From: Thermoplasmatota archaeon
Lineage (GTDB): Archaea > Thermoplasmatota > Thermoplasmata > UBA10834
DNA length: 64,000 nt
Direction: 5' to 3'
Assembly: GCA_040751795.1 (NCBI GenBank)
Contig: JBFMHR010000005.1
Span: forward strand, 32,001-96,000
In this document: positions 2,889-38,834 of the stretch, piece by piece
Layout: each line of letters starts with the position of its first letter
Position numbering within the stretch: the stretch's first letter is position 1
Position numbers and translations under genes: made by a program
The notes under the pieces: generated by a model
Database searches by the model: none
What the model was told of the DNA's origin: nothing
What the model saw: the letters and a program-made list of their open reading frames with translations, nothing else

Positions 2889-2955
2889 TCCGTCCGCTCC
2901 TCACCATACACAAGCTAGATGAACCACCCTCGGCATCCGGCCTTCGGAGCTGCAC

Positions 2956-3489
2956 ATGCTGAAGGGCCGCAATGTCAACCTGGAGATCGCCGAGAAGGGC
3001 GACCTCGCGACGCTCAAGGAGTGGATGAACGACGTCGAGTTCATGGGCGACTTCGAGTCCTTCGACCAGTCCTCCCTCGGGGACATGGAGAAGCAGTACG
3101 AACAGAAGGGCGACTCGCAGTGGTTCTTCGTCCAGAAGAAGGACGGCACCAGGATCGGGTACATAGCCCACTTCAGGTCCAAGGGCTGCATCGCGATAGG
3201 ATACCTGTTCGTCAAGGGCGAGAGGGGCAAGGGGTACGGCACGGAGGCCGTCCAGGTCATGGTGGACTACCTCTTCCTCCACAAGGACACGGTCCGGGTG
3301 CAGGCGGAGATCCACCCTGACAACGTCGCGTCGCGGCGCGTCCTCGAGAAGGCGGGGTTCCAGTTCGAGGGGCGCATCCGGAAGTCGTTCTTCAGCCGCG
3401 GCGTCTACAGGGACACGGCCTTGTACAGCATCCTGCGCGAGGAGTGGAAGGCGCCCAAGGTGCTCCCCCTGGGGCACGTCGGCACCTGA
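2956..3489 (+). CDS. GNAT N-acetyltransferase, RimJ/RimL family
   Basis: RGKGYGTEA acetyl-CoA motif; NVASRRVLEKAGFQFEG; YSILREEW C-terminus. Confidence 0.9.
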   Translation: MLKGRNVNLEIAEKGDLATLKEWMNDVEFMGDFESFDQSSLGDMEKQYEQKGDSQWFFVQKKDGTRIGYIAHFRSKGCIAIGYLFVKGERGKGYGTEAVQVMVDYLFLHKDTVRVQAEIHPDNVASRRVLEKAGFQFEGRIRKSFFSRGVYRDTALYSILREEWKAPKVLPLGHVGT

Positions 3490-3553
3490 ACGCCTGAGAT
3501 GTCACCGTGGCCTTTATGAAGCGACGGGATGGTTCATAACCCGGAATTGGCTG

Positions 3554-4654
3554 GTGGATTCATTGGATTATGCCTACTGGATAGTCCTGTCGTCCGTGCC
3601 CATGGTAGCATGGCTCGTGCTGTATGCGCTCGTCTCCGTCCGTTCGAGGAAGGGGGACATCGAGATGCGCGTGAACCGGTTCGCCATCACCGGCGCCTTC
3701 CTCGCGCTGGTCTCGTTCGCCACCGGATGGTCCGCGATCGAGTCCGGCTATGACTGGTCGGCGACGACCCAGATGGTGTTCTTCCTGCTCCTCACCTATC
3801 CTGTCGCGATCATCACCCCGTTGGCCGGGGTGGGGCAGGCGGGCGTCCTGCTGTGGGTGCTCGCATGGGTGCAGGAGCAGGACGCGGCCATCGGGATGTG
3901 GCCAGGATACGTGCTGGCGTGGATCTCAACGGCGTTCATGGTCGCGGGGATGGTCTGGCCATCCGGGATGTCCAGGGAGCGCGCAAGGCAGGACCTGAGC
4001 GACCGGCTCCTCACCATGACTGTCAGGAGGCCGTCCGGGCAGTGGATGCCCGGGAACCGCGCCCTGGCCTATGTGCTGTCGGTGGTGATCATCGCCGCTG
4101 CCGGCCTCTCACTCGTCTTCGGACGCGGCCTCGACGCCCCCCTCCTTCTGGTCGTCTGCCTTGCCTTCGTGCTGTACCTCCTCAGGGTGAACCCTCTCGC
4201 TGGGGTCCTTGCAGGGAGCCTACCCCGCGTCGCATCCGCGCCGCCACGTACCACGGGAGGGTCGCCCATGGCGTGGGTGGCCTTCCTGGGGGCTTCCTTC
4301 GCGGCCGCGGTCGTCGTCATCGGCGTCGCAGCCTCCTCGTTCGGCTCGTCCGGCCTGTCCGGAGAGGAGAGGACGTCGGTGCTCGTCTGGGGCGGGGCGC
4401 TGCTCGCCATCCTGGCGCCCTCGGCGGTCATCGCGTACCGCCGGGCCGCCGAGCCGTCGCTGCCAAGGAGCGCGGTGACCGCCACCGTGGTCATCTTCTC
4501 CGTCCTCATGCTCATGTCTGCGGTCTCACTCTACAGCTCCCTTGTCCTATTCATGTCCGCGACGGAGCTGCTGTTCCTGGCAGGCCTGGTGCTGGTGGGC
4601 ATACCGGTGCTGTTCCTCCAGGGGACCGGTGCCCGGGGAGAGGCGGCCGGCTGA
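3554..4654 (+). CDS. Polytopic membrane protein, unknown function
   Basis: 366-aa ORF with roughly 10-11 hydrophobic segments; no recognisable motif. Confidence 0.7.
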   Translation: MDSLDYAYWIVLSSVPMVAWLVLYALVSVRSRKGDIEMRVNRFAITGAFLALVSFATGWSAIESGYDWSATTQMVFFLLLTYPVAIITPLAGVGQAGVLLWVLAWVQEQDAAIGMWPGYVLAWISTAFMVAGMVWPSGMSRERARQDLSDRLLTMTVRRPSGQWMPGNRALAYVLSVVIIAAAGLSLVFGRGLDAPLLLVVCLAFVLYLLRVNPLAGVLAGSLPRVASAPPRTTGGSPMAWVAFLGASFAAAVVVIGVAASSFGSSGLSGEERTSVLVWGGALLAILAPSAVIAYRRAAEPSLPRSAVTATVVIFSVLMLMSAVSLYSSLVLFMSATELLFLAGLVLVGIPVLFLQGTGARGEAAG

Positions 4655-4755
4655 GGCCCAGGCCCCCGGTGGGAGAGCGCGGGCCATCCGCCCGCGGCGA
4701 GATGATAGAAAGAGTGCAGGGGAGGGCGGCCCCTCCCCCTGTCGGGTTTCGCGCC

Positions 4756-5928
4756 TTAGTTGTAGTCCGCGAGGAAGTCGTACCAGCCGGTGTCGACGGC
4801 GAAGTCGAGGCCCGCGTAGACGTAGGACCACGACGACCAGTCCCAGTCCGAGCCCCACCAGATGGAGATGCCCCCGCACATGGTGGTGCTCCCGGCGTTG
4901 TCGAGGCAGATCACCATGCCGTCGACCGCCGCGATCACCGCCTGGCACAGCGCCCTGAGCTCGGGGTCGGTTATCTTGGAGCTCGCCAGCAGCTTGCTGC
5001 AGAGGTCGGACATGTCCACCTGGGACTTCGTGTAGAACACCGAGTAGGTGTCCCTCACCGCGGCCTTGTAGGCCCTGTAGTACGCGCCGAGGTTGGCGTG
5101 TATCTCGTCGCACCACGCGTCTATCGTCGCCATGGACTGGGACAGGGTCCCGAGCTTGATGGCGCTTAGCGTCGCGTAGTAGTATTCGGTCCTCGGGTCG
5201 TAGTACTGGGCCCACCCGGCTATCATGTCGTTCGCGACCTGGTCCGGAGTCCTCGCCGGGTCCAAGGCGACGGGCGTGAACATGAAGTCGTACGGGAAGC
5301 CGTCGCCCGCGACGGTCTCCACCGAGGCGACCAGGATGTCCACGAGCCCGGTCTCGGACACCGCGTACGCCGTCTCGACGCTCGCCATCGAGCACGCGTC
5401 GCACGAGAGGATGTCGATGTACGCGCCGGCGCCGACTATGGCCGCCTTCAGCTCGTCCAGGTACATCCAGTCGTCCGAGGTGTCGTCCCCGCAGAAGCCG
5501 TTCCAGGCGCTCCCGTGGTCCCAGAGGTCCACGAGCAGGTTCTCTGACGGGTACCGCAAGGTCGTCTGCTCGATCACCCACTGCAGCGTCGCCCCGTCCC
5601 CGAAGTTCATCTCAGGGAAGGTCTCGACGATCTGCGCGTCGCCCCCTTCGACAACCCACAGCTCCGTCCCCGGGTACTCCAGCCGGTCGACGAAGGCGAC
5701 TATGTTCACCCCGGCGCTCGCCGGGATGTTCTGCAGGTAGAGGAGGCTGAGCCCCTCCCAGTATGTGTCGAAGTTGTTGTCCGCGTCTATGTACAGGCTG
5801 ATTGTCCAGGGGGCGACACCCTCCGCCGAGGCCCTCCCTGTCAGCCCTCCCGCCATGAAGACGGCGGGGAGGACGAGACAGAGGGAGACGACGGCGCAGG
5901 CTGATGCCCCGCGTAGTCCCCTATTCAT
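4756..5928 (-). CDS. Secreted clostripain-family (C11) cysteine peptidase
   Basis: Signal peptide; WTISLYIDADNN; EMNFGD; catalytic DHG (WDHGSAW) and DAC (SCDACSMA). Confidence 0.9.
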   Translation of the reverse strand: MNRGLRGASACAVVSLCLVLPAVFMAGGLTGRASAEGVAPWTISLYIDADNNFDTYWEGLSLLYLQNIPASAGVNIVAFVDRLEYPGTELWVVEGGDAQIVETFPEMNFGDGATLQWVIEQTTLRYPSENLLVDLWDHGSAWNGFCGDDTSDDWMYLDELKAAIVGAGAYIDILSCDACSMASVETAYAVSETGLVDILVASVETVAGDGFPYDFMFTPVALDPARTPDQVANDMIAGWAQYYDPRTEYYYATLSAIKLGTLSQSMATIDAWCDEIHANLGAYYRAYKAAVRDTYSVFYTKSQVDMSDLCSKLLASSKITDPELRALCQAVIAAVDGMVICLDNAGSTTMCGGISIWWGSDWDWSSWSYVYAGLDFAVDTGWYDFLADYN

Positions 5929-6017
5929 GTAGTTCCCCCACTCTGCACGGCCGAAGCGGCCGTGCCAGGCGCCGCATGCCCGTCCGACGTCTTAAATGAA
6001 TCCATCCGTGCGGGCGG

Positions 6018-6776
6018 TCAGGCCAGCTCCGTCTCCCGGAAGAGGTACGCCCCGAGAAGGACGAAGCACGCCGCGAGGGCCAGAAGCACGAGCGCCGACG
6101 CCCCGGGGTCCGTCGCCTCGGCGAAGGCGCCCATGGAGCCGTAGTCCGCCCAGCCCGAGCCGACGCTCCTCAGGTAGTGCTTCACGGAGACCTTCTGGAT
6201 CGCCCCGGGGAGGGAGCCGATGAACCCCTCCCATATGAACGCGTAGAAGAGGCCGAAGTACACGGGCCTCTTGATCAGCACGCTCACCGCCAGGAACAGG
6301 GCGGAGTAGACGAACGAGCCCACGACGACCAGGGCGGTGAACTCCCCCCAGGCCTCGAGCGCCTCCCCGCCGAGGTCGACCTGGGCGAAGTAGGCGAGGA
6401 AGCCCGCCGCGTTGACGGCGACCATCGAGATAGAGACTGTGAGCGCGAGGGGGATGTAGTACCCGACGTACGAGAACGCCCTGTCCAGGGGCGCGGTCGC
6501 GACGTGTGTGATGCTCCTGTCGTCGATCTCGTCCCGGATGAGCGAGGTCCCGTAGATCATCGCCATCACGGGCATGAAGAAGAAGAGTATGAGCACGTCC
6601 AGGAGGTCCGTGCCGTCCGCAATGGCCGCGCCTTCCTGCGAGCCGGCGTACCCCATGACCGCGGCCACGAAGGCCGCCACGAGGATGCTGATCAGGACCT
6701 TCCTGCTGAGCACCAGCTTCTTCATGAAGTGCCGGGTGATGGCCACGATGCCAGTGAGAGCGTCCCTGAGGTCCAT
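6018..6776 (-). CDS. ABC-2 type transporter permease
   Basis: C-terminal part of track ORF 6018..7673 from MDLRDALT; about 6 TM; IRDEIDDRSI motif; coupled to the upstream ATPase. Confidence 0.85.
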   Translation of the reverse strand: MDLRDALTGIVAITRHFMKKLVLSRKVLISILVAAFVAAVMGYAGSQEGAAIADGTDLLDVLILFFFMPVMAMIYGTSLIRDEIDDRSITHVATAPLDRAFSYVGYYIPLALTVSISMVAVNAAGFLAYFAQVDLGGEALEAWGEFTALVVVGSFVYSALFLAVSVLIKRPVYFGLFYAFIWEGFIGSLPGAIQKVSVKHYLRSVGSGWADYGSMGAFAEATDPGASALVLLALAACFVLLGAYLFRETELA

Positions 6777-6778
6777 GT

Positions 6779-7696
6779 TCACCGCCCCACCAGGTACCTG
6801 AATATGGCCTCCAGGTTGTCGTCCAGGCTGTACATCTTGGTCACCGAGCACCCCGTCCCCTCGACCAGCGCGGGCAGCCTCGTGAAGAAGTCGTCCGGCC
6901 TGGAGACCTGCACCGTTATGCCCCTGCGGTCCTGGTTGTACGCCACGGAGACGGTGAACCCCTCGTCCAGGAGCGCCTTGGCGAGCGCGTCCACCCCGTC
7001 GCCCTCGATGACAATGTTGTGCGGGTGCTTGTCTATCAGGTCCCTTATCTCCGATATGTCGCCGGTCGCCACCGCCCTGCCCTTGTAGATGAGCACCACG
7101 TTGTGGGTCATCCTCTCGATCTCGAAGAGGACGTGCGACGAGACGATGACGTCGTGCCCGCTCTCCCTGTGGAGCCTCCCGACCAGGTCTATGAGCTCCC
7201 TGCGGACGAGCGGGTCGGTCCCGCTCAGGGGCTCGTCCAGGATCAGCAGGTCCGGGTCGTGGAGGAGCGCCCCGGCGATCTTCATCCTCTGCTTCATGCC
7301 CTTGCTGTAGCCGCCGATCCTCCGGTCCATGGCCTTCTCCATCTCGACGAGGCGGGCGACCTCGGAGATGCGGGCGGAGAGCCTGTCGCCGTTGATTGCA
7401 TGGAGCCCGCCGAGGAGCGAGAGGTACTCGCGCCCGGTGGCCTCGTCCGGGAGGCTCTCGTAGTCCGGGCAGAAGCCGATCGACCGGTGCAGCCCGGGGT
7501 TCTTCCAGGGCGTCTGTCCCAGCACCCTTATCTTCCCGGTGCTCGGCGTGATGAGGCCGAGGGCGAGCTTGAACAGGGTGCTCTTCCCGGCCCCGTTGGG
7601 GCCGACTATCCCGGTGATGCCCTTCCGCACCTCCAGGGTGAAGTTGTTGAGGCCGATGACCTCCCCGTACCACTTGCTGAGGCCGTACGCCTCCAT
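6779..7696 (-). CDS. ABC transporter ATP-binding protein
   Basis: Walker A GPNGAGKST; signature YSKGMKQR; Walker B LLILDEP; SSH switch. Start is uncertain. Confidence 0.92.
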   Translation of the reverse strand: MEAYGLSKWYGEVIGLNNFTLEVRKGITGIVGPNGAGKSTLFKLALGLITPSTGKIRVLGQTPWKNPGLHRSIGFCPDYESLPDEATGREYLSLLGGLHAINGDRLSARISEVARLVEMEKAMDRRIGGYSKGMKQRMKIAGALLHDPDLLILDEPLSGTDPLVRRELIDLVGRLHRESGHDVIVSSHVLFEIERMTHNVVLIYKGRAVATGDISEIRDLIDKHPHNIVIEGDGVDALAKALLDEGFTVSVAYNQDRRGITVQVSRPDDFFTRLPALVEGTGCSVTKMYSLDDNLEAIFRYLVGR

Positions 7697-7725
7697 CACG
7701 AGGCCGGATCCGCCGGGTGCCGCCT

Positions 7726-8559
7726 CTATCCTCCCACCACCTGTCTCTTGAGCTTGAGGTAGACCACGACCGCAGGGACGCACACGAACGCCGTCATGAA
7801 GACCGCGAGGGCCGGCCAGTCCACGTAGTCAGGGGTCTCGACGCCGAAGATCCAGCCCGAGGCGAACGAGAGGGCGTCGGCGGGGCTGATGACCCTCCAT
7901 GCGGGGTCGAACTCTGCGAATATCTCCGCGACTATCAGCAGCACGAAGAACGACATGAAGGTCCCCACGGCGGCGTAGCTCTTCCTCTTGGTGAATGAGG
8001 ACATCATCAGCCCGTAGGGCACGAAGAAGACCGTCATGACCGCGCCCGCGGCGACCGTCCTGGCGAGCACGCCCGCGCTGCCAGCGTAGTCGTCCCCGGA
8101 CTGGGTGGCGACCGCTGCGACGGCGACGGCCACTGGAGGGAGGAGGCACATGATGCTCATCACCAGCAGCGACGCGGCCCCCTTCCCGACGAGGTAGTCC
8201 CTGACCTTGACCGCCCTGGAGAAGTAGAGCACGAACGAGCGGCCGGCGAGGTCCTCGGATATCAGGTCGGAGGTGACCACGGCCGCGAGCAGTATCGCGA
8301 ATATCGAGAGCGTGTTGCCCGAGCCCATGTAGTCGAACATGGTCTGGGCATCGAGCCCCTCGTGCGGGGCGATGACGGTGAATATGAGCTGGAACGCGTG
8401 CAGGAAGAGGAACCCGAGGGCCAGTATCACCAGGACGCCGATGGCCTTCATCTTGTGCCGGAAGACGCTCCTCGCGATGACGTACATCCTCCTGTCCTGG
8501 GCGCTCCTCTCGCCCTTCCAGGCGCTGTACTCGATGGGGTTAATCCCCACTCGGCCCAC
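7726..8559 (-). CDS. ABC-2 type transporter permease
   Basis: About 6 TM; ISEDL...LYFSRAV...YLVGK motif; lies between two ABC ATPases. Confidence 0.85.
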   Translation of the reverse strand: MGRVGINPIEYSAWKGERSAQDRRMYVIARSVFRHKMKAIGVLVILALGFLFLHAFQLIFTVIAPHEGLDAQTMFDYMGSGNTLSIFAILLAAVVTSDLISEDLAGRSFVLYFSRAVKVRDYLVGKGAASLLVMSIMCLLPPVAVAVAAVATQSGDDYAGSAGVLARTVAAGAVMTVFFVPYGLMMSSFTKRKSYAAVGTFMSFFVLLIVAEIFAEFDPAWRVISPADALSFASGWIFGVETPDYVDWPALAVFMTAFVCVPAVVVYLKLKRQVVGG

Positions 8560-9526
8560 CCCCTTGGAACGCCTGCAGGAAGACGTCCTCCAGGCTCATG
8601 CGGTCAGGGGTGTAGCTCCTGACCTGCACCCCGTGCTCCCTCGCGAGGCCGAAGATGCCCCTGCCGTCCCCGCAGCCGCGCACCGAGAAGGAAGCCTGGC
8701 CGACGCCCTCATCCGCCTTCTTGACGACCGTGCAGGCGGCGCCCAGGGCGCGCGCGAAAAGCTCAAGCGCCTTTGCATCGCCCCTGACGGTGAGGTTCTG
8801 GAGCCCCTCCTCGCCGGCCATGAGCGCCCCCATCCGTCCGTCCCTGACGAGGCGGCCATCGCTGATGATGATCGCGTGGCCGCAGACCCTCTCGACCTCC
8901 TGGAGGATGTGCGATGAGACTATGATGGTCTTCCCGGTCGCGCCGATCCTCCTCACGAGGTCGAGCATCTCCTCGCGCCCGTTGGGGTCCATCCCGCTCG
9001 TCGGCTCGTCCAGGAACAGGAGCGCGGGGTCGTGCACTATGGCCTGCGCGAGCTTGACCTTCTGCTTCATTCCGGTCGAGTACGATTTGACCAGCCGGTA
9101 CCTCTCCTCGCCGATGCCGACGAAGTCGAGGACCTCGTGGCACCTCTGCATCGCGTCGCGCTGCCCCATCCCGGATATCTGCCCCATGTACGAGACGAGC
9201 TCCACGGAGCTCATGGACGGTATGAGGCAGTCGTGCTCGGGCATGTAGCCGATGTCGTCCCTGATGCGGAGGCTCTCGGTCTGCGAGTCGAGGCCGCCGA
9301 CGGAGATGCTCCCCCTCTCGAGGGGCACGAGGCCGAGCGAGGCCTTGATGAACGTGCTCTTGCCAGCGCCGTTCGGGCCGAGCAGGCCGATGACCCCCTC
9401 GGGGATGTCGGCCGTGAAGCCGTTCAGCGCGACGACCTGCCCGAACCGGACGGTGACGTCCTTCGCGGAGAGCCGGTGGGCCCCTGCCGTCCCGTCCGCT
9501 GCGGCGCCATCGCCCGCCGTGGTCAT
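8540..9526 (-). CDS. ABC transporter ATP-binding protein
   Basis: GPNGAGKST; YSTGMKQK; LFLDEP; SSH. Confidence 0.92.
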   Translation of the reverse strand: MTTAGDGAAADGTAGAHRLSAKDVTVRFGQVVALNGFTADIPEGVIGLLGPNGAGKSTFIKASLGLVPLERGSISVGGLDSQTESLRIRDDIGYMPEHDCLIPSMSSVELVSYMGQISGMGQRDAMQRCHEVLDFVGIGEERYRLVKSYSTGMKQKVKLAQAIVHDPALLFLDEPTSGMDPNGREEMLDLVRRIGATGKTIIVSSHILQEVERVCGHAIIISDGRLVRDGRMGALMAGEEGLQNLTVRGDAKALELFARALGAACTVVKKADEGVGQASFSVRGCGDGRGIFGLAREHGVQVRSYTPDRMSLEDVFLQAFQGGGPSGD

Positions 9527-9579
9527 CCGTGGGGCATCGGCATCGCCGATATATCAGTTGAGGGCGGAATCCCGCCGGC

Positions 9580-10545
9580 TCATTCCAGGAGGGCCGTCCC
9601 GACCACCCTGAGCTTCCCGCCCTCGAGGTACGCGAGGACCGCCTTCGAGCCTGGCGGGAAGGCGAGCGGCTTCTGAAGGGAGAGGGACAGGCGCGGCCTC
9701 CTCCGGTCCCCCGTGTCTGAGACGCCCGCGACCCTGGCGGGCACGAACTGCATCCAGTGCCCGACATGGAGGACCATCCCCTCGGCGATCGGGTTGAGCC
9801 AGTACTTGACGACCTCCGCGACGCAGGTCAGCTCGTTCCTCGCGACCAGCGCGGGGTCCGTGGTGAGGACGGCGCCCCTGTCCAGCTCCTGGGCGGTGAT
9901 GCCCTTGAGCGCCAGGCCCACCCTGTCCCCCTTGACGGCCCAGTCGAAGTCGTCGTCGTGCTTCTGTATGGACCTTATGTCAGCCCTCTTGTCGTCCGGC
10001 AGGACCCTGAGCGAATCGTGCTTCCTGATGTGCCCGTCCGCGACGCGCCCGAGGACGACCGTGCCGACCCCCTTCACGTCGAAGTGGTGGTCCACCGGAA
10101 CGGAGCCGCGCGACGGCCCCTCCGGCTCCTGGCCCCCGGCCTTCTCCGCCTCCGCGAGGAGCATCTCCCGGAGGGCGGTGTGGTCGTCCTGGACCACCTC
10201 GTACGCCTCCAGGGCAGTGCCCCTCACGAACGGGGCGAGCTGGTCCACGGTGATGTAGTTCCTCAGGACCATCCAGCCCCTGCGCACGCCGACGCAGTCC
10301 AGCATGACGATGGTCTCGCCGAGGACGGGGCTGATCTGGTCGACGACGACGAGCGCCGCGTCGGCCATGGATGCGCAGTGGAAGAGCGTGGAGAGCCTCT
10401 CGGGGTACTTCGTCGGCTCGACGAACGTGACGGTGGCCTCCCCCCTCTTGATGTCGAAGAAGGTCATGTCCGAGGCGGTCGACCTCTTCCCCAGGTCCCT
10501 GGCGTAGTCCGGGGCGCCGACGACCACCACTGTGAGGTTCGCCAT
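9580..10545 (-). CDS. Archaeal SelB-like (aSelBL) EF-Tu/SelB-family protein with degenerate G domain
   Basis: LGKRSTASDMT N-terminus; domain II VDHHFDVKGVGTVVLG and IRSIQKHD...GDRVGLALK; no canonical GxxxxGKS/T. Confidence 0.8.
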   Translation of the reverse strand: MANLTVVVVGAPDYARDLGKRSTASDMTFFDIKRGEATVTFVEPTKYPERLSTLFHCASMADAALVVVDQISPVLGETIVMLDCVGVRRGWMVLRNYITVDQLAPFVRGTALEAYEVVQDDHTALREMLLAEAEKAGGQEPEGPSRGSVPVDHHFDVKGVGTVVLGRVADGHIRKHDSLRVLPDDKRADIRSIQKHDDDFDWAVKGDRVGLALKGITAQELDRGAVLTTDPALVARNELTCVAEVVKYWLNPIAEGMVLHVGHWMQFVPARVAGVSDTGDRRRPRLSLSLQKPLAFPPGSKAVLAYLEGGKLRVVGTALLE

Positions 10546-10613
10546 GCGGTCAGGGGTAGGCGGGGTCCCTAATTATCCTTTATCAAGCGACGCTGCGCAG
10601 AACGATGCTCCGC

Positions 10614-11014: not shown

Positions 11015-11719
11015 TCAGGCATCCTTCCTCTGGTCGGTGTGTATGGTCGGCTCGTCCCACTTGAACGCCCGCTGGCAGGTGTCGGGCCCCAGCTTGACGT
11101 CGAAGAGGCCGGCCCTCTTGCCGTACACGAGGGCCAGCATCAGGCCGACGACGGCCACCAGGGCCAGGGCGGTGGCGATCCCGGGCTGGAGGACGAAGCT
11201 CTCTGTGATCTCGACCCTCAGGAGGTCCCAGACCGGGTCCATGAGGCTCTCCCCCTTCGTCAGGTGCGCCCCTATGGAGCCGGTGGCGCCCGTCACGCCC
11301 ATCGCCGCCGCGGCCACCAGCACGTAGACCGCCGCCATCGCGGGGCATGTCCAGAGCCCTCTGCCGAACCTGAACCTGATGAAAACCACCATGGACCAGA
11401 GCGCCATGGAGAAGACCGTCAGCGTGATCTTGTTGCGCACGTCCTCCGGGACTATCAGGTCCTCGAGGGGCCACGCGTACATTCCCGTGTATGTCGAGAG
11501 GAACATGCCTATGAGGCCGCCGACGGCCGCGACGTACCCGGTCGCCTCGGCATACCCCCTGACCTTCATGGCGAGGTCGACCAGGGACTTGGGGAACCTG
11601 TTCCTGTAGCGGACGACGACCTGCGACGCGGCGACAGCGACGATGCACACGAAGGCCAGCGTGAGCATGCCCCCGTGTATCTCGGCCGTGAGGGAGTGCA
11701 GCGACGACATGCTGACCAT
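11015..11719 (-). CDS. DUF2231-like multi-TM membrane protein, possible heme-b binding
   Basis: About 5 TM; LHSLTAEIHGG at the N-terminus and TGSIGAHL; ATG directly follows the stop of the upstream gene. Confidence 0.7.
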   Translation of the reverse strand: MVSMSSLHSLTAEIHGGMLTLAFVCIVAVAASQVVVRYRNRFPKSLVDLAMKVRGYAEATGYVAAVGGLIGMFLSTYTGMYAWPLEDLIVPEDVRNKITLTVFSMALWSMVVFIRFRFGRGLWTCPAMAAVYVLVAAAAMGVTGATGSIGAHLTKGESLMDPVWDLLRVEITESFVLQPGIATALALVAVVGLMLALVYGKRAGLFDVKLGPDTCQRAFKWDEPTIHTDQRKDA

Positions 11720-12682
11720 CTATCTCGACCTCCTCTCGACGACGCGCTTCCTGATGAACAGGGCCATGACGACCATGATCCCCACGACGCAGACGATGAT
11801 CACCGCGCCGGCGCCGATGGTGACCACCCACTCCAGCATCGATACCAGCTCCGACTCGTTGTCGACGAACACCGCGATCTCCTTGCTCACCGAGTCGCCG
11901 GTCGAGTCGACCACCGTGACTATTATCACATGGCCGCCCTCGGTCATGTTGGTCGTGTCAACGGTCCAGCTGAACGGGGCGGAGGCGAGCTCGCTCACGA
12001 CGGTCCCATCGATCTTCAGTGTGGCGGACTCGATCTCGTCCACGCTGACGATGTTGGCGTTTATCGTGAGGTTGCCCGACACCGTTGCGGAGTTCGAGGG
12101 CGAGGTTATGACGACCGTGGGGATGTTGGCGACGGGGTCGCCGTCGCCCCCGTCGTCGCCGCCGGAGTAGTCGGTGACGGTGAAGACGAGGCCGGCCGAG
12201 TAGTCGTTCGCGTAGGTCCCGGGGCCTCCGTGCATCTCCCTCGCGAAGAGGACGTGCACGCCGAGGCTGGACGGCGCAGTGAGGTCCCACGACATGGACA
12301 CGGAGCCCTGGTAGTCGGAGACCTCGTAGTAGTTGTAGGTCGTCGACCCGCTGGGGTCGGCGACGATGGCCCATCCGTCGGCGGAGGGCTGGCTGTTCGT
12401 GTAGGTGGTGGAAGACACGATCATTACTCCGAGCGGCGAGTCGTCCGCCTCCCCGCCGGAGACACCGACGGTCAGGGTCAGCGCCCCGCCCGGCGCGGGG
12501 GTCACGTTGGTGGCGCTCATGGTCATGACCGACGTGCTGGTGGCGTCGTGGCAGGAGCCGCCGCAGTCGTACTCGAGGTCGTCGCTGTCGACTCCTCCTG
12601 GGTTGGCGTATATGCCAGGAGACATGACTATCGCGGCCAGGACCACTCCCATGACGAGAACGAGCAGGTTGCCCTTCCTCAG
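11720..12682 (-). CDS. Membrane-anchored Reeler/choice-of-anchor-V-like protein with CX3CH motif and Ig-like domain; putative c-type cytochrome
   Basis: Probable CTG start after a G/A-rich SD-like stretch; signal peptide ...IYA|NPGG; DCGGSCH; WDLTAP...REMHGG; Ig-like PTVVITSPSNSATVSG; C-terminal TM + RKR. Confidence 0.75.
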   Translation of the reverse strand: MRKGNLLVLVMGVVLAAIVMSPGIYANPGGVDSDDLEYDCGGSCHDATSTSVMTMSATNVTPAPGGALTLTVGVSGGEADDSPLGVMIVSSTTYTNSQPSADGWAIVADPSGSTTYNYYEVSDYQGSVSMSWDLTAPSSLGVHVLFAREMHGGPGTYANDYSAGLVFTVTDYSGGDDGGDGDPVANIPTVVITSPSNSATVSGNLTINANIVSVDEIESATLKIDGTVVSELASAPFSWTVDTTNMTEGGHVIIVTVVDSTGDSVSKEIAVFVDNESELVSMLEWVVTIGAGAVIIVCVVGIMVVMALFIRKRVVERRSR

Positions 12683-12833
12683 ACTCTCTCCCCCTCGGCC
12701 CTTGAGCTCCCGGGCCCTCCGCCCGATAACGGGGTTATCGTTAATAATCGTTTTGAGTTCGTCGCGCCCTCGCCTCCGACCGCCACTGATTAAATATGGC
12801 GAACCTGTTCCTGAGACACTGGGGGCGAGTTCC

Positions 12834-14870
12834 GTGGCTCCGGGGAACATCCTTCTTGCGATGAGCGTGATATTCTCAGTCGCCTCGGCTCTGCTGTCCG
12901 TACCTCGGATCGCAATGATGGTTCCCGCAAGAAGGTTGGTGGCCGAGTGGCTTATGGTCCTCTCGTTCCTCTCCATCACAGGGGCCCTCGCCCTCATCGT
13001 GCACGCCTTCACATCGTTGGACTTCTCGGTCCTATACGTCTGGGAGCACTCGTCCTCGGACCTGGACCCGCTGTACAGGCTCTCGGCAGTCTGGGCCGGA
13101 GGCGGTGGCTCCCTCCTGCTGTGCACGTGGTTCATCTCCTTGTCATGGCTCATCTCCTCAGCCATGATCTATCAGGGGAACGTCAGCGCAGGGAAACAGA
13201 GGCCTGGGGCAAGGTTCGCATCAGTGTCCTCGGCAATCATGTCCGTCTTGGTCGCCTTTTTCGCATTCACTGTCCTCATGTCCGGCGTCTTCGACAAGAC
13301 CCCCGCCGCGTCCCTCGCTGCAAACCCTGATGGCCTGGGCCTGGATACACTCCTTCAGTCTCCGGAGATGGTCCTCCACGCGCCCCTGATACTCGGCGCA
13401 TATGCCGCGCTCTGCTCGGTGTTCGCGTCGTCGGCCGCACATCTCGTCACGGGTGATCGTCACTGGCACAGGGTCTCTCTCCCGTGGGGAAGGTTCGCCT
13501 GGGTGACGCTGACCGCCGGAATCGGCCTAGGGGCCGTGTGGGCGTACTATGTCATCGGCTGGGGAGGCTACTGGTCCTGGGATCCGGTGGAAACCGCCTC
13601 GCTCGTCCCGTGGCTCATGGTGACGGCCTTCCTGCACACACAGCAGAGGCAACTCCAGAAGGAGGAGTACCCGGTCGCGTCTCCGATGTTCGGAATGCTC
13701 TCGCTCGTGGGGGTCGTGTTCGTCTCCTTCGTCGTGCGCGCGGGAGGGCTGTGGAGCTCCTCGGTGCATGACTACGGCGCCTCGTCGGAGTCATCGGCCG
13801 TGGCCAGGCTCGCCTTGCTGCTGTCGAAGGATCCGTCAGTCGCGGGCGTCCTCGTCTTCATGCTCGCCCTGCTGGCCGCATCGCTCATCCTGTCGTTCCG
13901 CGCGAGCAGGAGGCTCGGCCCGTCCCAGCCAGTGGGCGCGCCGCCGAGGCTGAGCGGGTACGTCACGGACCGCAACAACATGTTCGCGGCAGTGGTCCTC
14001 ATCGCCCTGTCCGCGTCGGTGGCCGTCGCGCTGATGCTCAAGACCGTCGGGTCGGACGCGGCCGCGACCTACGCGGAGCTCGACCAGAAGATGACCGCGC
14101 TCTTCGTCGCGCTCATGGTCGCCCTCGCCCTCTGCATGGCCTGGAGGCTCGTGGGGAGGGAGCGCGCCCTCCCGATGGTCCTGGCCCTGGTCGTGGCCTC
14201 GGCCGTGCTCGCGGCCGTGGCGGCGTGGACCGGCGCCGTCGACGGCGCGGTGGCCTTCGCGCTGCCGTCGTGCTGCCTGGTGATAGTCGCCTCTTCTGTG
14301 AGGCTGGCACAGACTCTGTCGAAGGGGCCCGGCAGGAGCAGGGCCTACAGGGCCGGGGCGCAGGTCGCGCACATCGGGGTCGCCCTTCTCATCGCGGCGT
14401 TCGTGGTCTCGTCCAACATGCAGTCGTACCCTGCCCAGGGCCCAGAGGTGGCGCTGGGGGTCGGGGGCCAGGTGTCGGTCGGTGACTACGTGGTCGAGTT
14501 CGTCCGCATGGACTTCAGCTACGATGTCGATGGACGCCCCGCCGGCGTGACGATGGTCAGGACGGCCTACGTGGACATCTACGAGGGCGAGAGGCTCGTC
14601 CAGGTCGATGTCCCCCTGGAGGTGCTGTACGGCGGGAACGAGGCCGCGGGTTACTACGAGCTAGAGAGGGTGGCCTTCGTCGACTCCTCCATCTCCGGGG
14701 ACCTCTACCTGAGCTACGCGGTCATGTCCTACGATGTCATCCTGCTGCACGCGAAGGTGGTCCCTGCGATGTGGGCGCTATGGGCCGGCGCGCTCCTCCT
14801 GATCTCCGGGATGGCCGTCCGCATGTGGGCCTTCGGCCCGACCGAGGCGGCCTCCCGCGAGGACGCCTAG
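12834..14870 (+). CDS. ccmF: Cytochrome c biogenesis heme lyase CcmF
   Basis: WWD motif WGGYWSWDPVETASLVPWL; His motifs LHAP, FLH, SVH and AHIG; many TM helices. Start is probably GTG 12834. Confidence 0.9.
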   Translation: MAPGNILLAMSVIFSVASALLSVPRIAMMVPARRLVAEWLMVLSFLSITGALALIVHAFTSLDFSVLYVWEHSSSDLDPLYRLSAVWAGGGGSLLLCTWFISLSWLISSAMIYQGNVSAGKQRPGARFASVSSAIMSVLVAFFAFTVLMSGVFDKTPAASLAANPDGLGLDTLLQSPEMVLHAPLILGAYAALCSVFASSAAHLVTGDRHWHRVSLPWGRFAWVTLTAGIGLGAVWAYYVIGWGGYWSWDPVETASLVPWLMVTAFLHTQQRQLQKEEYPVASPMFGMLSLVGVVFVSFVVRAGGLWSSSVHDYGASSESSAVARLALLLSKDPSVAGVLVFMLALLAASLILSFRASRRLGPSQPVGAPPRLSGYVTDRNNMFAAVVLIALSASVAVALMLKTVGSDAAATYAELDQKMTALFVALMVALALCMAWRLVGRERALPMVLALVVASAVLAAVAAWTGAVDGAVAFALPSCCLVIVASSVRLAQTLSKGPGRSRAYRAGAQVAHIGVALLIAAFVVSSNMQSYPAQGPEVALGVGGQVSVGDYVVEFVRMDFSYDVDGRPAGVTMVRTAYVDIYEGERLVQVDVPLEVLYGGNEAAGYYELERVAFVDSSISGDLYLSYAVMSYDVILLHAKVVPAMWALWAGALLLISGMAVRMWAFGPTEAASREDA

Positions 14871-19781: not shown

Positions 19782-20597
19782 ATGAGGCGTCCAGCAGTGG
19801 CCGGCCAGTTCTACGAGGGCGACGAGCGCTCGCTGAGGAAGCAGATAGACGCCTGCTACCTGGGACCGCTGGGCCCCGGGAGGCTGCCCGAGCTGAGGGC
19901 GGGCCCGAGGAAGGTCCTCGGGGGCGTCGCGCCCCACGCAGGCTACATGTTCTCGGGCATGGTCGCCGCGCACCTTTACTCCCGGATTGCCGAGGACGGC
20001 TTCGCCAAGACATTCGTGATCATAGGGCCGAACCACACGGGCCGCGGCTCGGGGATGGCGATGTCCCTCGACGACTTCGAGACCCCGTTCGGCGTCGCCA
20101 AGGTCGACCAGGTGCTCGCGCGCGCGATGAGGAGGGACCTGGTCGATGTGGACCCCGAAGCGCACCACTTCGAGCACTCCATAGAAGTGCAGATACCTTT
20201 TCTGCAACACATATCCAAGGACTTCAAGATCGTCCCCCTCTGCATGGGCTTCCAGGACTTCGAAGCATCCAGGGCGGTCGGCGAGGTCATACGCGACGCC
20301 GTCAAGGGGAGGGACGCGGTCGTCATCGCCTCCACGGACATGTCGCACTACGTGTCCCCCGGGACCGCTAAGGCCAAGGACGGCAAGGCGCTCAAGAAGG
20401 TCGAGGCCATGGACCCGAAGGGGCTCAGCGAGGTCGTGGGCGACGAGAACATCTCCATGTGCGGCTACGGGCCCGTGATGGCGACGATGGTCGCGTGCGG
20501 CGGCGGGAAGGCCAGGGTGCTGAAGTACGCGACGTCCGGGGACGTGCGCCCGATGGCGGACGTCGTCGGCTACGCGTCCGTGGTCATTGAGAAGTGA
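19782..20597 (+). CDS. amrB: MEMO1-family protein (AmmeMemoRadiSam system protein B)
   Basis: RRPAVAGQFY; PHAGYMFSG; GPNHTG; EHSIEVQIPFLQ; STDMSHY; SMCGYGP; VVGYAS. Confidence 0.93.
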   Translation: MRRPAVAGQFYEGDERSLRKQIDACYLGPLGPGRLPELRAGPRKVLGGVAPHAGYMFSGMVAAHLYSRIAEDGFAKTFVIIGPNHTGRGSGMAMSLDDFETPFGVAKVDQVLARAMRRDLVDVDPEAHHFEHSIEVQIPFLQHISKDFKIVPLCMGFQDFEASRAVGEVIRDAVKGRDAVVIASTDMSHYVSPGTAKAKDGKALKKVEAMDPKGLSEVVGDENISMCGYGPVMATMVACGGGKARVLKYATSGDVRPMADVVGYASVVIEK

Positions 20598-21175
20598 GGG
20601 GGGTCCTGACCATCAGACTGCCGTTCAAGCTGCCCCGGGTGACATCCGGGGCCGTGCTCCTGATGTTCGCCCTGACCGCGGTCTGGGCGGCGCTGGTCGT
20701 CCTCGCCCCGCTCATGGTCCCGGCGGGGACGCTGACCGACCTCTCTGGACGGGTGGGGTTCCACGACAACGACCTCCTCCTCGACGAGCTGTCTCCGCTG
20801 CCCCACGCGATCTACTGGATCGGCGACGCGGAGTGCCACCAGCTCGCCAACAGGAGCTTCTTCCTCAACGACAACCAGATGCCCTTCTGCGCGCGCGACG
20901 TCGGCCTCTTCGTGGGCCTCGCCCTCGCCTCGGGGGTCGTGACGTTCATAAGGTACAAGGTGAACCCGCTGCTGGTGCTCGCGGGCCTCGTCCCCATAGG
21001 CCTGGACGGGGGGATCCAGCTCGTGACGGAGTACGAGTCCAACAACCTGCTGAGGGTCGCCACGGGCCTGCTGGCCGGCGCGGCCCTGGCCCTGCTCATG
21101 GCCCACTTCGTGTTCGCCCTCCAGGAGGACAGGCCGCGGGACCGGACCGAGGGGAAGGACCCGCCGTGCCAGTAA
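20594..21175 (+). CDS. DUF2085 membrane protein (copy 1)
   Basis: CHQLANRSF...QMPFCARDVG; DGGIQ...ESNNLLRVATG; GTGA overlap with MEMO1. Confidence 0.85.
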   Translation: MRGVLTIRLPFKLPRVTSGAVLLMFALTAVWAALVVLAPLMVPAGTLTDLSGRVGFHDNDLLLDELSPLPHAIYWIGDAECHQLANRSFFLNDNQMPFCARDVGLFVGLALASGVVTFIRYKVNPLLVLAGLVPIGLDGGIQLVTEYESNNLLRVATGLLAGAALALLMAHFVFALQEDRPRDRTEGKDPPCQ

Positions 21176-21263
21176 TCATGGATACCATTTAATAATTTTA
21201 AAACCCTCCAGGACTGGGACGGTGGGATATACCCACCGTCCCGGAGAATGGTGAGGTGGAGAG

Positions 21264-21596
21264 ATGACATCGGAACCGGGGGCCGCACCGACGAGGAACT
21301 GCGTATCCTGCGGCAGGGCGATCTCGTGGGACGCGAACGTATGTCCGTACTGCGGGCACGACTTCAGGGCCGCGCCGAGCTATGCACCGAAGGAGTCGAT
21401 CAGCGACGGCATGAAGATACTGCTGTACATACTGTCGTTCCTGTTCTTCATAATCGGGATCATAGTCGGCATAATCTACTACACGAAGCCGGAGCCCGAG
21501 CTGAAGGAGTTCGGCAAGATGTGCATAATACTCGCCGTGGTGGGTGCACTCATCGGGGGCCTGTGCTACTGCATAGGCTTCGCCGCGGTGCTCTGA
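21264..21596 (+). CDS. Zinc-ribbon + 2-TM membrane protein (copy 1)
   Basis: TRNCVSCGRAISWDANVCPYCGHDFR followed by two hydrophobic helices; GAGGTG SD. Confidence 0.85.
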   Translation: MTSEPGAAPTRNCVSCGRAISWDANVCPYCGHDFRAAPSYAPKESISDGMKILLYILSFLFFIIGIIVGIIYYTKPEPELKEFGKMCIILAVVGALIGGLCYCIGFAAVL

Positions 21597-21690
21597 GGTG
21601 CGGCGGCGCCAAACCTCTTCCGCAAACCCCTCTTGCGTTTAACCCCCCTCTGCGAACTGTTAACTCCGGGCCGGGCCATCCAGGTCCCGG

Positions 21691-22362
21691 ATGGAAGCGT
21701 TCTTCGACCTCCTGACGTTCCTGGGCTCCTCCGTCTGCCACCAGATCGCCGAGCGCTCCTACACCTTCGGGGACCACCAGATGCCCCTCTGCGCCAGGTG
21801 CATGGGCATCCACGTCGGCTTCCTGGTCTCGGCGGCGCTCCTCTGGGCGGGTGCACTCCGGCACGCCTCGGGCCTGCCACGGATGCGCGACCTGGTCCTG
21901 CTCTGCGCCGTCATGTCCGTGGCCGTCGCCGACGCCCTTCTCTCCTATTCGGGCATCTCCCCCTCTGACAACCTGCGCAGGACGCTCAGCGGCCTATGCC
22001 TTGGCGTGGCTCTGCCGTTCATCCTCTTCCCGATCATGAACACGGTCCTCTCCCCGGGGCGCGACCCGCGCGGCCCGATATCGCGGCCCATCGACTGGCT
22101 CAGGCCCGCGGCAGCCTACGCGATAGGGGCGTCGGCCATCCTCGGGGCGCCGTCGGCCCTCGCCCTCTTCGCGGCCGTGTCGGCCGCCGGCGTCGTCGGC
22201 CTGTTCCTCACCTTCTCCTGCGGCATCATGACCATACTGTCGCTCGCCCTGGAGCGCAGGCGCATCGCCCCGAAGTGGCTCGCGCTCATGTCCATTGCCG
22301 TCGCGGCGTCGGCCCTGACGGCGTCTGCGCTGTTCCACAACACCTTCCTGCCCGACGTATGA
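21691..22362 (+). CDS. DUF2085 membrane protein (copy 2)
   Basis: CHQIAERSY...QMPLCARCMG; SDNLRRTLSG; several TM helices. Confidence 0.85.
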   Translation: MEAFFDLLTFLGSSVCHQIAERSYTFGDHQMPLCARCMGIHVGFLVSAALLWAGALRHASGLPRMRDLVLLCAVMSVAVADALLSYSGISPSDNLRRTLSGLCLGVALPFILFPIMNTVLSPGRDPRGPISRPIDWLRPAAAYAIGASAILGAPSALALFAAVSAAGVVGLFLTFSCGIMTILSLALERRRIAPKWLALMSIAVAASALTASALFHNTFLPDV

Positions 22363-22474
22363 GGAGGGCGCCAGAGGCGGCGCGGGGTGGCACACCAGGG
22401 CAAGTGTTTTAAGGCACGGAAGGCGCTCTCAAACCAGCCGCGGCGGCACGGCCGCGGCGGAAAAGGTGGCATGA

Positions 22475-22921
22475 ATGACATCGACGCCTGCACAGGCCCC
22501 GACGAGGAACTGCGTCTCCTGCGGGAGGTCCATATCTTGGGATGCGAACGTTTGCCCGTACTGCGGGCACGACTACCGCGTGGTCATGGCGGGCGCCCCC
22601 CCGCAGAAGAAGGAGAGCGCCATGCCCGTGATTGGCGGGATACTGATACTGATCGTCGGCATCGCCTACCTGGGCATCGGCGGGCTGATCGCGGCCGCCG
22701 GCGGCTCCGTCCTCTGGATGGACATGGAGGGCTCCGAGTTCGCCGTCGCGTGCGGCGCGATCGTGCTGCTGCTCGGGGTCCTGGTGCTGCTGGGCGGGAT
22801 ATTCGCCATACAGAGGAGGCACTTCGGCCTGGCCCTGGTCGCGGGCATATTCGCCCTGCCCAGCGTCCTGGGGATCATAGGCCTGATCCTCATCATCGTC
22901 TCGAGGGAAGAGTTCCGTTGA
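22475..22921 (+). CDS. Zinc-ribbon + 3-TM membrane protein (copy 2)
   Basis: TRNCVSCGRSISWDANVCPYCGHDYR followed by three hydrophobic helices and an SREEF terminus. Confidence 0.85.
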   Translation: MTSTPAQAPTRNCVSCGRSISWDANVCPYCGHDYRVVMAGAPPQKKESAMPVIGGILILIVGIAYLGIGGLIAAAGGSVLWMDMEGSEFAVACGAIVLLLGVLVLLGGIFAIQRRHFGLALVAGIFALPSVLGIIGLILIIVSREEFR

Positions 22922-27831: not shown

Positions 27832-28096
27832 CAACATCTGCATTCGTCGGATGCCGACAGGAAAGCGGCGACAGACAGCGAGCCAGACATGGATGTGCGT
27901 GGGGTGGAAGGAGACAGGACGGGCATTGGGTGCCCCGGCCGGCCCGAATCGGGCGGAAGGGGCGCCACGGGCGACTCGGGGACGGCGTTCCGCGCTCGCG
28001 GACGCCATCGCAAACCGTGCGAATGACACTGAGTTACTGACAGCCTGACGCGTCCTCGCATCCTTAGGACCCCGCGACTGCAGGAGGGAGGTCCCG

Positions 28097-38104: not shown

Positions 38105-38722
38105 ATGCCTGAGCAGCTCGCCGGGGACAGGGAGGCGCTCAGGCTCGCCTGGGACGCCGCGTCCGCCAGGGACCTCGTCGCCCTCGCCGGGGAGTCGCTC
38201 TCGCGGCCCTCGGGCGAGGGCATGCTCCTGCTCAGGCTGATGGACCGCGAGTGCGCGGTCGACGTGCGGTCGAGAGACATCGCCTTCACCGACGACGGCT
38301 CTCCCCTGAAGCCCCACGTGCAGGTCCTGGTCCTCCACTACATGCTCGGAGCGGGGAGGGGGGAGCCGACCGGCGAGATGGTCACGTTCAGGGAGTTCCC
38401 CGGGGGCGCCCTCTACTTCCCGGCGTACAAGAAGCGCACCCTGGACCTCCTCGTCTCGAGGTTCGGGGCCGACCCGGGGGCGCTGAGGCGCGCCGGCGAG
38501 CGCATGGGCGCATCGCCCATGGACAAGGCGACCGTCGCCTTCCGCACCAGGTTCCTACCCAAGCTCGACGTGGACGTCCTCATGTGGGCCGGGGACGACG
38601 AGGTCCCGTCGTCTGCGAACATCCTCTTCGACTCGTGCGCGGGGAGGATGCTCTCGACGGAGGACGTGACGGTCGTCGCGGGGGTCCTCTGCTCCCGCTT
38701 GGCGGCCCTGTCGAGGGGCTGA
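38105..38722 (+). CDS. DUF3786 domain protein
   Basis: LVLHYM; FREFPGGALY; WAGDDEVPSSANILFD; TEDV. The family is commonly found in acs clusters. Confidence 0.85.
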   Translation: MPEQLAGDREALRLAWDAASARDLVALAGESLSRPSGEGMLLLRLMDRECAVDVRSRDIAFTDDGSPLKPHVQVLVLHYMLGAGRGEPTGEMVTFREFPGGALYFPAYKKRTLDLLVSRFGADPGALRRAGERMGASPMDKATVAFRTRFLPKLDVDVLMWAGDDEVPSSANILFDSCAGRMLSTEDVTVVAGVLCSRLAALSRG

Positions 38723-38834
38723 GCGGGGCCGTCCCCGAGGCGGAGGAGGGCGTACTGACTCCCTCCCTCATGGAGGCAAGTGTTATAGCGGGGCTGGGCA
38801 ATCAACGTCAGGTCTTAGCAAGGGGGGTCGGGGA

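Follow-up and report, generated by a model that had tools for sequence, protein, structure and literature searches.

A CX3CH β-sandwich protein and its membrane partner form a probable surface redox module beside ccmF in a Thermoplasmatota archaeon

The window analysed here is a stretch of 64,000 nucleotides (nt) from a Thermoplasmatota archaeon (GenBank assembly GCA_040751795.1, contig JBFMHR010000005.1, positions 32,001 to 96,000). Between its positions 11,015 and 14,870 lie three genes, encoding a predicted exported protein with a C-terminal membrane helix (P1), a membrane protein with five helices (P2) and, on the other strand, CcmF, a component of System I cytochrome c maturation (Ccm). 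P1 and P2 very probably make up a conserved redox module at the cell surface, linked to cytochrome c maturation, and the cofactor of P1, judged from the sequences of the protein and its relatives, is most likely a covalent heme on an atypical CX3CH site, CGGSCH. The features of the locus are as follows.

11015–11719, minus strand: gene for P2 (open reading frame (ORF), 234 residues).
11720–12652, minus strand: gene for P1 (ORF and translation, 310 residues from the first ATG at 12652).
11753–11857, minus strand: C-terminal transmembrane helix of P1, about residues 266–300, predicted to dock into P2 (conservation and complex model).
12158–12604, minus strand: N-terminal β-sandwich domain of P1, residues 17–165, which defines the family (A4 profile).
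12224–12238, minus strand: EMHGG, residues 139–143, of which H141-G142 is the proposed distal heme ligand site (conservation).
12548–12565, minus strand: CGGSCH (C30-x3-C34-H35), residues 30–35, the proposed covalent heme attachment site with proximal His (conservation).
12653–12860, no strand: intergenic region separating the divergent P1 and ccmF genes (sequence inspection).
12861–14870, plus strand: ccmF (ORF, 669 residues, apparently intact, start ATG at 12861).

At the N-terminus of P1 is a hydrophobic leader, followed by the β-sandwich domain with CGGSCH (hereafter the N-domain), an immunoglobulin (Ig)-type Big_7 domain and the C-terminal transmembrane helix, after which comes the sequence RKRVVERRSR. 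Signal cleavage is likely between IYA and NPGG, which puts CGGSCH at mature positions 14–19, close behind the cleavage site as an earlier note on this DNA had placed it. Big_7 is the sole Pfam match of P1 (residues 178–243, E = 1.7e-12); neither the Reeler model (PF02014) nor any NCBIfam family, choice-of-anchor models included, matched at E ≤ 0.1. The AlphaFold 2 (AF2) model, with a mean pLDDT (predicted local distance difference test) score of 83.1, shows two β domains and a helix at residues 266–309.

Export of P1 is predicted only, and its start codon in the window is uncertain. Homologs begin with MRKG and then a hydrophobic stretch, in most cases ten codons upstream of the first ATG of the window gene; at that position the window has a CTG (12680–12682), with a G-rich GAGGGGGAGAG stretch immediately before it. 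In the relative P0004, an ATG stands further upstream, at a place where the window reads AAG. Starting at the CTG or at another near-cognate codon may give P1 a normal charged n-region in its signal peptide. An alternative in-frame start, GTG at 12834, exists for ccmF as well, and the distance between the starts of the two divergent genes is 152–208 nt, in keeping with the separation of about 150 nt given earlier. Within the intergenic region are two AT-rich, TATA-like stretches, read from the sequence at about 12738–12750 and 12789–12797.

CGGSCH is the sole C-x(2-5)-C-H motif among the 51 likely genes of the window. CxxCK is present in three other likely genes, and a single CXXCH occurs among the stop-to-stop frames of at least 60 residues, in a frame that is not among the likely genes.

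The motif is strongly conserved. Searches found 49 homologs of P1, 35 of which were aligned with the window protein (36 sequences), the 14 omitted being redundant close relatives of 61–84% identity. C30, C34, H35, H141 and G142 are invariant in all 36, down to 22% identity and across a distant group (22–27% identity) with a different C-terminus; one aligned homolog carries CGGSGTCH, a CX5CH. Loss of the Cys pair or the His from homologs, which the earlier note had named as an outcome that would count against a heme site, was therefore seen in none of the aligned sequences. The same note had offered EMHGG as the source of a Met or His distal ligand. Because M140 varies among the homologs and H141 is invariant, the His part of that proposal is favoured, and H141 rather than the Met is the candidate distal ligand.

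A profile of the N-domain (A4), built from seven sequences and searched against 1.84 billion cluster representatives, matched 161 representatives at E ≤ 0.001, of which 107 reach E ≤ 1e-10, and in full-length matches the domain begins about 25–45 residues from the N-terminus. Re-alignment of 150 listed proteins to A4 gave 148 domain matches, of which 15 are fragments without the motif region and 133 cover the site. CX3CH is the commonest pattern (68 domains), followed by CX2CH (19), CX1CH (10), CX5CH (9) and CX4CH (8), together 114 of the 133; a further six have a single xCH. The Cys–His pair is kept in 120 of the 133 domains and the His in 130. With the Cys–His fixed while the first Cys moves or vanishes, the site fits heme c attachment and not a disulfide, from which both cysteines should go together. 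Judged by this profile, the N-domain defines a family for which Pfam and NCBIfam hold no model, and it has no match in either collection or among Protein Data Bank (PDB) sequences. No description of the family was found in the literature searched, a coverage that left out subscription journals. The Reeler model matched none of 20 distant members at E ≤ 1. Sub-threshold cytochrome c matches in two distant CX2CH members (E 0.04–0.09) were treated as motif-level noise.

Following the N-domain are mostly Ig-type spacers, with Big_7 in 37, Big_13 in 15 and CARDB in 11 members in a Pfam summary of 118, and fn3 and PKD are also found. Sorting tails of the type IX secretion system (T9SS) occur in 4 of the 118, and by a crude hydropathy count 76 of the 150 proteins have a hydrophobic segment in their last 50 residues. 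In four N-domain proteins the simple anchor is replaced by a membrane redox module. P0130 (CGSSCH, E = 3.8e-51 to the A4 profile) consists of N-domain, Big_7 and NrfD; P0140 and P0145 (both CX4CH) of N-domain, fn3, DOMON and cytochrome b561; and P0247 (CX5CH) of N-domain, four Big_5 and cytochrome b. By Rosetta-stone reasoning, these fusions argue for the N-domain as the outermost part of a membrane chain of electron transfer, and they back the cell-surface redox role that had been suggested for P1.

The domain make-up of the family could also be read as that of structural surface proteins or adhesins, with C30 and C34 closing a small disulfide loop in P1 and P2 serving as a mere anchor or being an unrelated co-transcribed gene. 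P1 is made of Ig-like domains, a fold search with it against the PDB returned only generic, adhesin-like tandem Ig and fn3 proteins (template modelling (TM) score by query at most 0.28), and Big_7, CARDB, fn3, PKD and T9SS sorting tails recur in its relatives. We regard this as very improbable: a disulfide leaves unexplained the single Cys at the site of 16 of the 133 domains (6 with a lone xCH, 10 with an upstream Cys only) as well as the near-constant adjacent His, and there is no place in an adhesin for the NrfD, b561 and cytochrome b fusions or for the ccm linkage set out below.

P2 follows P1 without a gap, the P1 stop codon (11720–11722) abutting the P2 ATG (11717–11719), as had been noted from the sequence. 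Its AF2 model consists of five long helices (mean pLDDT 75.8) and contains the His residues reported before. The P2 family is narrow and well conserved, with homologs in 77 clusters at 44–100% identity. In an alignment of 25 homologs with the window protein (26 sequences), H8 and H15 are nearly invariant, and H152 in GSxGAHLT, C125 in LWTCP, C215, R54, Y56, W108, R115, R120 and W123 are invariant; the KWDEP tail, on the cytoplasmic side, is also conserved. P2 scores 17.1 bits against DUF2231 (PF09990), under the gathering cut-off of 26.4, with profile positions 5–130 of 139 covered, and DUF2231 appears at E ≤ 0.1 in merely 3 of the 26 family members; a distant relationship is possible. The assignments made in the earlier note to Reeler and choice-of-anchor-V (P1) and to DUF2231 (P2) are thus not supported, none having passed the model cut-offs. 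The top fold matches of P2 (STEAP1, 2 and 4, Dcytb and b561, E 0.29–3.5) are a mere hint. Longer fused forms of P2 were not found, which is weak evidence.

The two proteins are predicted to form a complex. Three model runs gave interface scores (ipSAE) of 0.78, 0.78 and 0.77, and the best control 0.00; the mark of 0.78 is reached by 116 of 157 solved complexes and by 2 of 215 mismatched pairs, a calibration that is only rough here because own alignments were used and two hemes were included. At least 81% of contacts recur between the runs, and the partner pLDDT is at least 79. Packed against P2 residues 89–135 and 174–219 in the model is P1 helix 268–309, in agreement with the invariant residues of this helix (W275, G282, I286, A297, L298, R301 and R303 in the 21 closer sequences). 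Sidedness, as indicated by the model contacts and by charged loops, would place the N-terminus and H152 of P2 on the outside of the membrane and C125 and C215 on the inside. The three conserved histidines (H8, H15 and H152) would then all be on the outer face, where the proposed heme domain of P1 also sits. A b561-like trans-membrane di-heme protein, as which P2 had been considered, needs two His pairs, one per face, and this predicted arrangement does not support it. P2 might have one outer-face cofactor or a quinol site.

Related loci show the same gene pair beside ccm genes. A scan of genome contigs seeded with the 21 closer P1 sequences gave 21 pattern matches, of which 6 were confirmed, and these form six loci in metagenome-assembled genomes of Thermoplasmata (L001–L006). 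C-x3-C-H is found at all six, and directly after P1 in all six is a P2 homolog of 55–71% identity. Facing P1 on the other strand are the following genes.

Window: ccmF only.
L001: ccmF only.
L005: ccmA, ccmB, ccmC, ccmE and ccmF.
L002 and L006: multiheme cytochrome, ccmA, ccmB, ccmC, ccmE, a 598-residue protein of no recognised family and ccmF.
L004: multiheme cytochrome, ccmA and the beginning of ccmB, where the contig stops.
L003: contig begins inside P1, with no upstream sequence visible.

Synteny, which the earlier note had proposed to check for ccmF, is conserved for ccm genes: they stand on the opposite strand facing P1 in the window and in all five loci with upstream sequence. The ccmF gene is the last of a ccmA-B-C-E...F cluster in L002, L005 and L006, with ccmC and ccmF of L002 placed through tblastn only. 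In the available sequence of the window and of L001, tblastn found no ccmA, B, C or E, no multiheme cytochrome and no 598-residue protein. The junction between P1–P2 and the ccm genes has outlasted gene gain and loss on both sides, which strengthens the case for P1 as a Ccm client.

Between the ccm cluster and P1, directly opposite P1, is a multiheme cytochrome of 584–643 residues with 8–9 CXXCH in L006 (7924–9675, minus strand; 584 residues, 8 CXXCH), L002 (7999–9792, minus strand) and L004 (1016–2944, minus strand; an ortholog with 9 CXXCH). These proteins match MtrC/MtrF-like, c7/c3 and c552 families, with an fn3 domain in L006 and L002, and their sequences suggest extracellular electron transfer in the Thermoplasmata lineages that have them. 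The CcmE of the relatives ends in VGCASKY, which is the archaeal CxxxY type described in the available text of PMC9084895. With a protein of 8–9 CXXCH and a CcmE of this type encoded, the relatives clearly make c-type cytochromes.

The window ccmF scores 91.8 bits against PF01578 (cut-off 29.9) and 195.5 bits against TIGR00353, under the cut-off of 569. Its alignment with the solved CcmF of Thermus thermophilus (6ZMQ, E = 5e-20) spans the WWD motif. H173, the WGGYWxWDPVET stretch, H259, H303 and H504 are invariant in five CcmF orthologs; by sequence, the protein has the Cytochrome C assembly domain, the WWD motif and the four histidines by which CcmF/NrfE proteins are recognised. That ccmF stands in the window with no other ccm gene and no CXXCH protein, as first observed, was borne out by motif scans, by a Pfam scan of 48 further window ORFs, which found no ccm family and no cytochrome family, and by tblastn queries taken from the relatives (ccmA, B, C, E and the multiheme cytochrome), which returned just generic ABC ATPase similarity (27–29% identity) and ccmF itself. 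The ABC genes of the window (6782–9553) were rejected as ccmAB, there being no CcmB model match and only 27–29% identity to the relatives' ccmA.

An isolated ccmF beside an unusual motif invites the view, taken in the earlier note, that the module has its own lyase, a paralog tuned to the CX3CH of P1 as NrfE is to CXXCK or CcsA1 to CX15CH. Consistent with this are the retention of ccmF as the sole ccm gene beside P1 in both the window and L001 and a TIGR00353 score far under the cut-off. The operon CcmF proteins of L006 and L005, however, score equally low on that model (205 and 198 bits) and are best matches of the window protein. Identity to the window falls in parallel for CcmF (L001 49%, L002 40%, L006 40%, L005 37%) and for P1 (64%, 45%, 40% and 40%, in the same order); from this ranking and the operon matches, the window gene is an ortholog of the general ccmF of the operon. 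The orthologous gene closes a complete cluster in three relatives, in two of which (L002 and L006) a multiheme CXXCH cytochrome stands alongside, and one ccmF was seen per locus. In addition, CX3CH sites occur inside otherwise CX2CH multiheme proteins for which no special lyase is named in the available text of the sources cited below, and the drift of Cys spacing from 1 to 5 within the N-domain family speaks against a tight lock between lyase and motif. We hold a dedicated lyase to be quite improbable. On sequence grounds, the window ccmF looks like the general CcmF of the lineage, still beside P1 once the remainder of the block had gone from this site. According to the available text of PMC9084895, CcmF requires holo-CcmE, and an archaeal CcmABCEF set without CcmH suffices in Methanosarcina, whose ccm genes lie at four separate loci; a ccmF apart from ccmABCE is therefore not strange.

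Several observations weigh against a c-type cytochrome at this locus. The N-domain of P1 matches no cytochrome model in Pfam or NCBIfam, the A4 profile has no match among PDB sequences at E ≤ 10, and the fold matches of P1 are generic, in a search that is uninformative on a cytochrome f or Reeler fold. The pLDDT near CGGSCH is merely 66–72 in the AF2 model. Within the family, 10 of the 133 domains lack the Cys–His pair but have a Cys at least two residues ahead of the His, and the His is absent from 3. The second His, that of EMHGG, is present in merely 95 of the 137 domains having the column (Tyr in 21). CX1CH, the pattern of 10 domains, is a spacing poorly matured in engineered cytochromes. 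The fold search with P2 gave nothing at E ≤ 0.001 (best STEAP1, E = 0.29). Pfam scan and tblastn found no ccmA, B, C or E anywhere in the 64-kb window, and all six related loci are from Thermoplasmata, so that some of the synteny may be shared descent.

Much the same evidence can be turned towards an N-domain that is redox-active or metal-handling without being a c-type cytochrome, in which the Cys/His site and H141 bind copper, iron or non-covalent heme b and the adjacency of ccmF is inherited gene order without functional meaning. Copper proteins are usually built on a β-sandwich that supplies Cys and His ligands, 13 of the 133 domains lack the Cys–His pair yet keep the fold, and the fusions would suit any redox cofactor or a substrate-binding end domain; the missing ccmABCE and cytochrome-model matches point the same way. 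A fixed Cys–His combined with spacings that run from CX1C to CX5C is seldom tolerated at metal sites, however, and the ccm linkage outlasts several rearrangements of the flanks. Such a cofactor therefore seems to us rather unlikely, if less easily dismissed than a plain structural role.

With a probability of roughly 55%, P1 is a β-sandwich monoheme c-type cytochrome of an undescribed kind that, with its membrane partner P2, links membrane redox chemistry to the cell surface. P1 would be exported and have heme attached covalently to C30 and C34, near the mature N-terminus, by the ordinary archaeal System I of the lineage, whose CcmF is encoded next door. H35 would be the proximal ligand of the iron, and H141, on the Ig-like β-sandwich, the likely distal one. 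The Big_7 domain would act as a spacer, and the C-terminal helix would dock P1 into P2, whose three conserved histidines are expected to face outward, on the side of the heme domain. Electrons would then pass, in a direction that may be either inward or outward, between redox reactions in the membrane, with the quinone pool as the likeliest partner, and a donor or acceptor outside the cell. The P1–P2 pair probably stands for a family of surface electron-transfer proteins that has so far gone undescribed.

More tentatively, and with less confidence than for P1 itself, the N-domain as a whole might be an unrecognised class of c-type cytochrome: an Ig/Reeler-like β-sandwich with one covalent heme on a flexible N-terminal CXnCH (n = 1–5, sometimes a single Cys), used as the outermost electron-transfer domain in archaea and by bacteria too, and plugging into P2, NrfD, cytochrome b or DOMON-b561. 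Use by bacteria is suggested by the four T9SS tails, of Bacteroidota type, among the 118 members; the taxonomic range of the family is inferred solely from these tails and from Atlas taxa.

Were these proposals to hold, a single-heme β-sandwich family with variable Cys spacing would join the few non-helical c-type cytochromes, and c-type cytochromes would be under-counted in Thermoplasmata and other archaea. Genome surveys based on CXXCH alone would miss P1, and the archaeal survey PMC4429474 seems, from its available text, to be one. Uncultured anaerobes bearing CO dehydrogenase/acetyl-CoA synthase (CODH/ACS) would have a small, modular route for electrons from membrane to surface. With its range from CX1CH to CX5CH and single Cys, the domain would also offer ready natural variants for probing which sites archaeal CcmF can use when CcmH is missing.

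Other genes were seen around the module. The 598-residue protein between ccmE and ccmF (L006 2871–4664, minus strand; L002 about 2906–4678, minus strand) has no CXXCH and no Pfam or NCBIfam match; L005 has only a short, remnant-like match, and none was found in the window or L001. It could be an unrecognised maturation factor. After P2, in the window (9583–10572, minus strand) and in three of the six loci (L002 11544–12659, L005 11651–12754, L006 11887–12957), is a protein with only EF-Tu domain 2 and weak likeness to SelB/EF-1-alpha. In L001 the place after P2 is taken instead by genes for a MenA-like prenyltransferase (6030–7016) and an AhbD/NirJ2-like radical SAM/SPASM protein (7020–8234), both below cut-offs, whose sequences give a weak hint of a quinone and heme context.

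The window as a whole has about 65% G+C and archaeal gene content, including a CODH/ACS cluster, an EMG1/NEP1 methyltransferase and a TrmB-type regulator. At 28049–32236 (plus strand), one ORF of 1396 residues joins CODH (Prismane) to ACS β parts (CODH_A_N, CdhC and ACS_CODH_B_C), which are usually separate subunits; downstream of it are two CdhD genes, a RACo reductive activator and a pterin-binding methyltransferase. This series of genes indicates a Thermoplasmata lineage with the carbonyl branch of the Wood–Ljungdahl pathway. Two clostripain-family (Peptidase_C11) genes lie at 4759–5991 (minus strand) and 38670–40124 (plus strand), and at 20591–22918 (plus strand) genes for two DUF2085 membrane proteins and for two small zinc-ribbon (UPF0547) proteins follow one another in alternation, resembling a duplicated two-gene unit.

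Known systems offer partial likenesses to each part of the locus. CX3CH is a reported atypical heme c motif, described for ImcH, some CymA homologs and a branch of MtrA in the available text of PMC6295460 and bioRxiv 10.1101/2025.05.29.656830. P1 shares with the CX3CH and CX4CH sites described there the C-x3-C-H, the His as (in P1, proposed) proximal ligand and (in P1, predicted) export to the outer face of the membrane. Those sites are set in α-helical multiheme folds beside ordinary CX2CH sites, whereas P1 has a single site at the N-terminus of an Ig-like β-sandwich, spacing of 1–5 across its family and no match to a cytochrome model.

Nearest in layout are cytochrome f and the Sulfolobales proteins CbsA and CbsB of the cbsAB-soxLN cluster. 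Cytochrome f is a mainly β-sheet c-type cytochrome with its heme motif about 20 residues from the mature N-terminus and a C-terminal transmembrane anchor within a membrane complex with cytochrome b; its motif is CXXCH and its sixth ligand the N-terminal amino group, whereas the candidate in P1 is H141. The analogy is one of these features of layout, with no sequence or fold match to P1. CbsA is a b-type cytochrome. The comparison with CbsA/CbsB is by description only and not by sequence: CbsA is an extracellular cytochrome of archaea that has been called analogous to cytochrome c1, and its gene adjoins one for an uncharacterised hydrophobic protein (PMC5461723, available text). Unlike cbsAB-soxLN, the P1–P2 pair has no Rieske or cytochrome b gene adjoining it in the window, by Pfam scan.

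The window CcmF resembles that of the streamlined archaeal System I (CcmABCEF with CxxxY CcmE) in its WWD motif and four histidines, and the relatives have ccmA, B, C, E and F with a CcmE ending in CASKY, in line with the set found both necessary and sufficient in Methanosarcina (PMC9084895, available text); the window differs from the full system in having ccmF only. CcmF is one polypeptide in the window and is split in two in M. acetivorans (PMC9084895, available text). In the survey PMC4429474, as far as its available text goes, CxxCH motifs are tallied and Thermoplasmatales cytochromes c are predicted only from single-cell genome data, as two proteins.

The earlier note had also drawn a loose parallel with the eukaryotic Reeler-DOMON-b561 ferric-chelate reductases (FRRS1/SDR2 type). 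The layout bears this out in P0140 and P0145, whose order of β-sandwich, spacer, DOMON and b561 is the same; P1 itself departs from it, the window version being split into P1 and a partner that is not a b561, with PF02014 unmatched. Reeler likeness of the N-domain rests only on this common layout and on Reeler-bearing Atlas clusters found as leads (feature score 0.89, TM 0.66), and we know of no heme c in Reeler domains. If the likeness reflects real homology, the N-domain would offer the first clue to what the Reeler domain does in these reductases.

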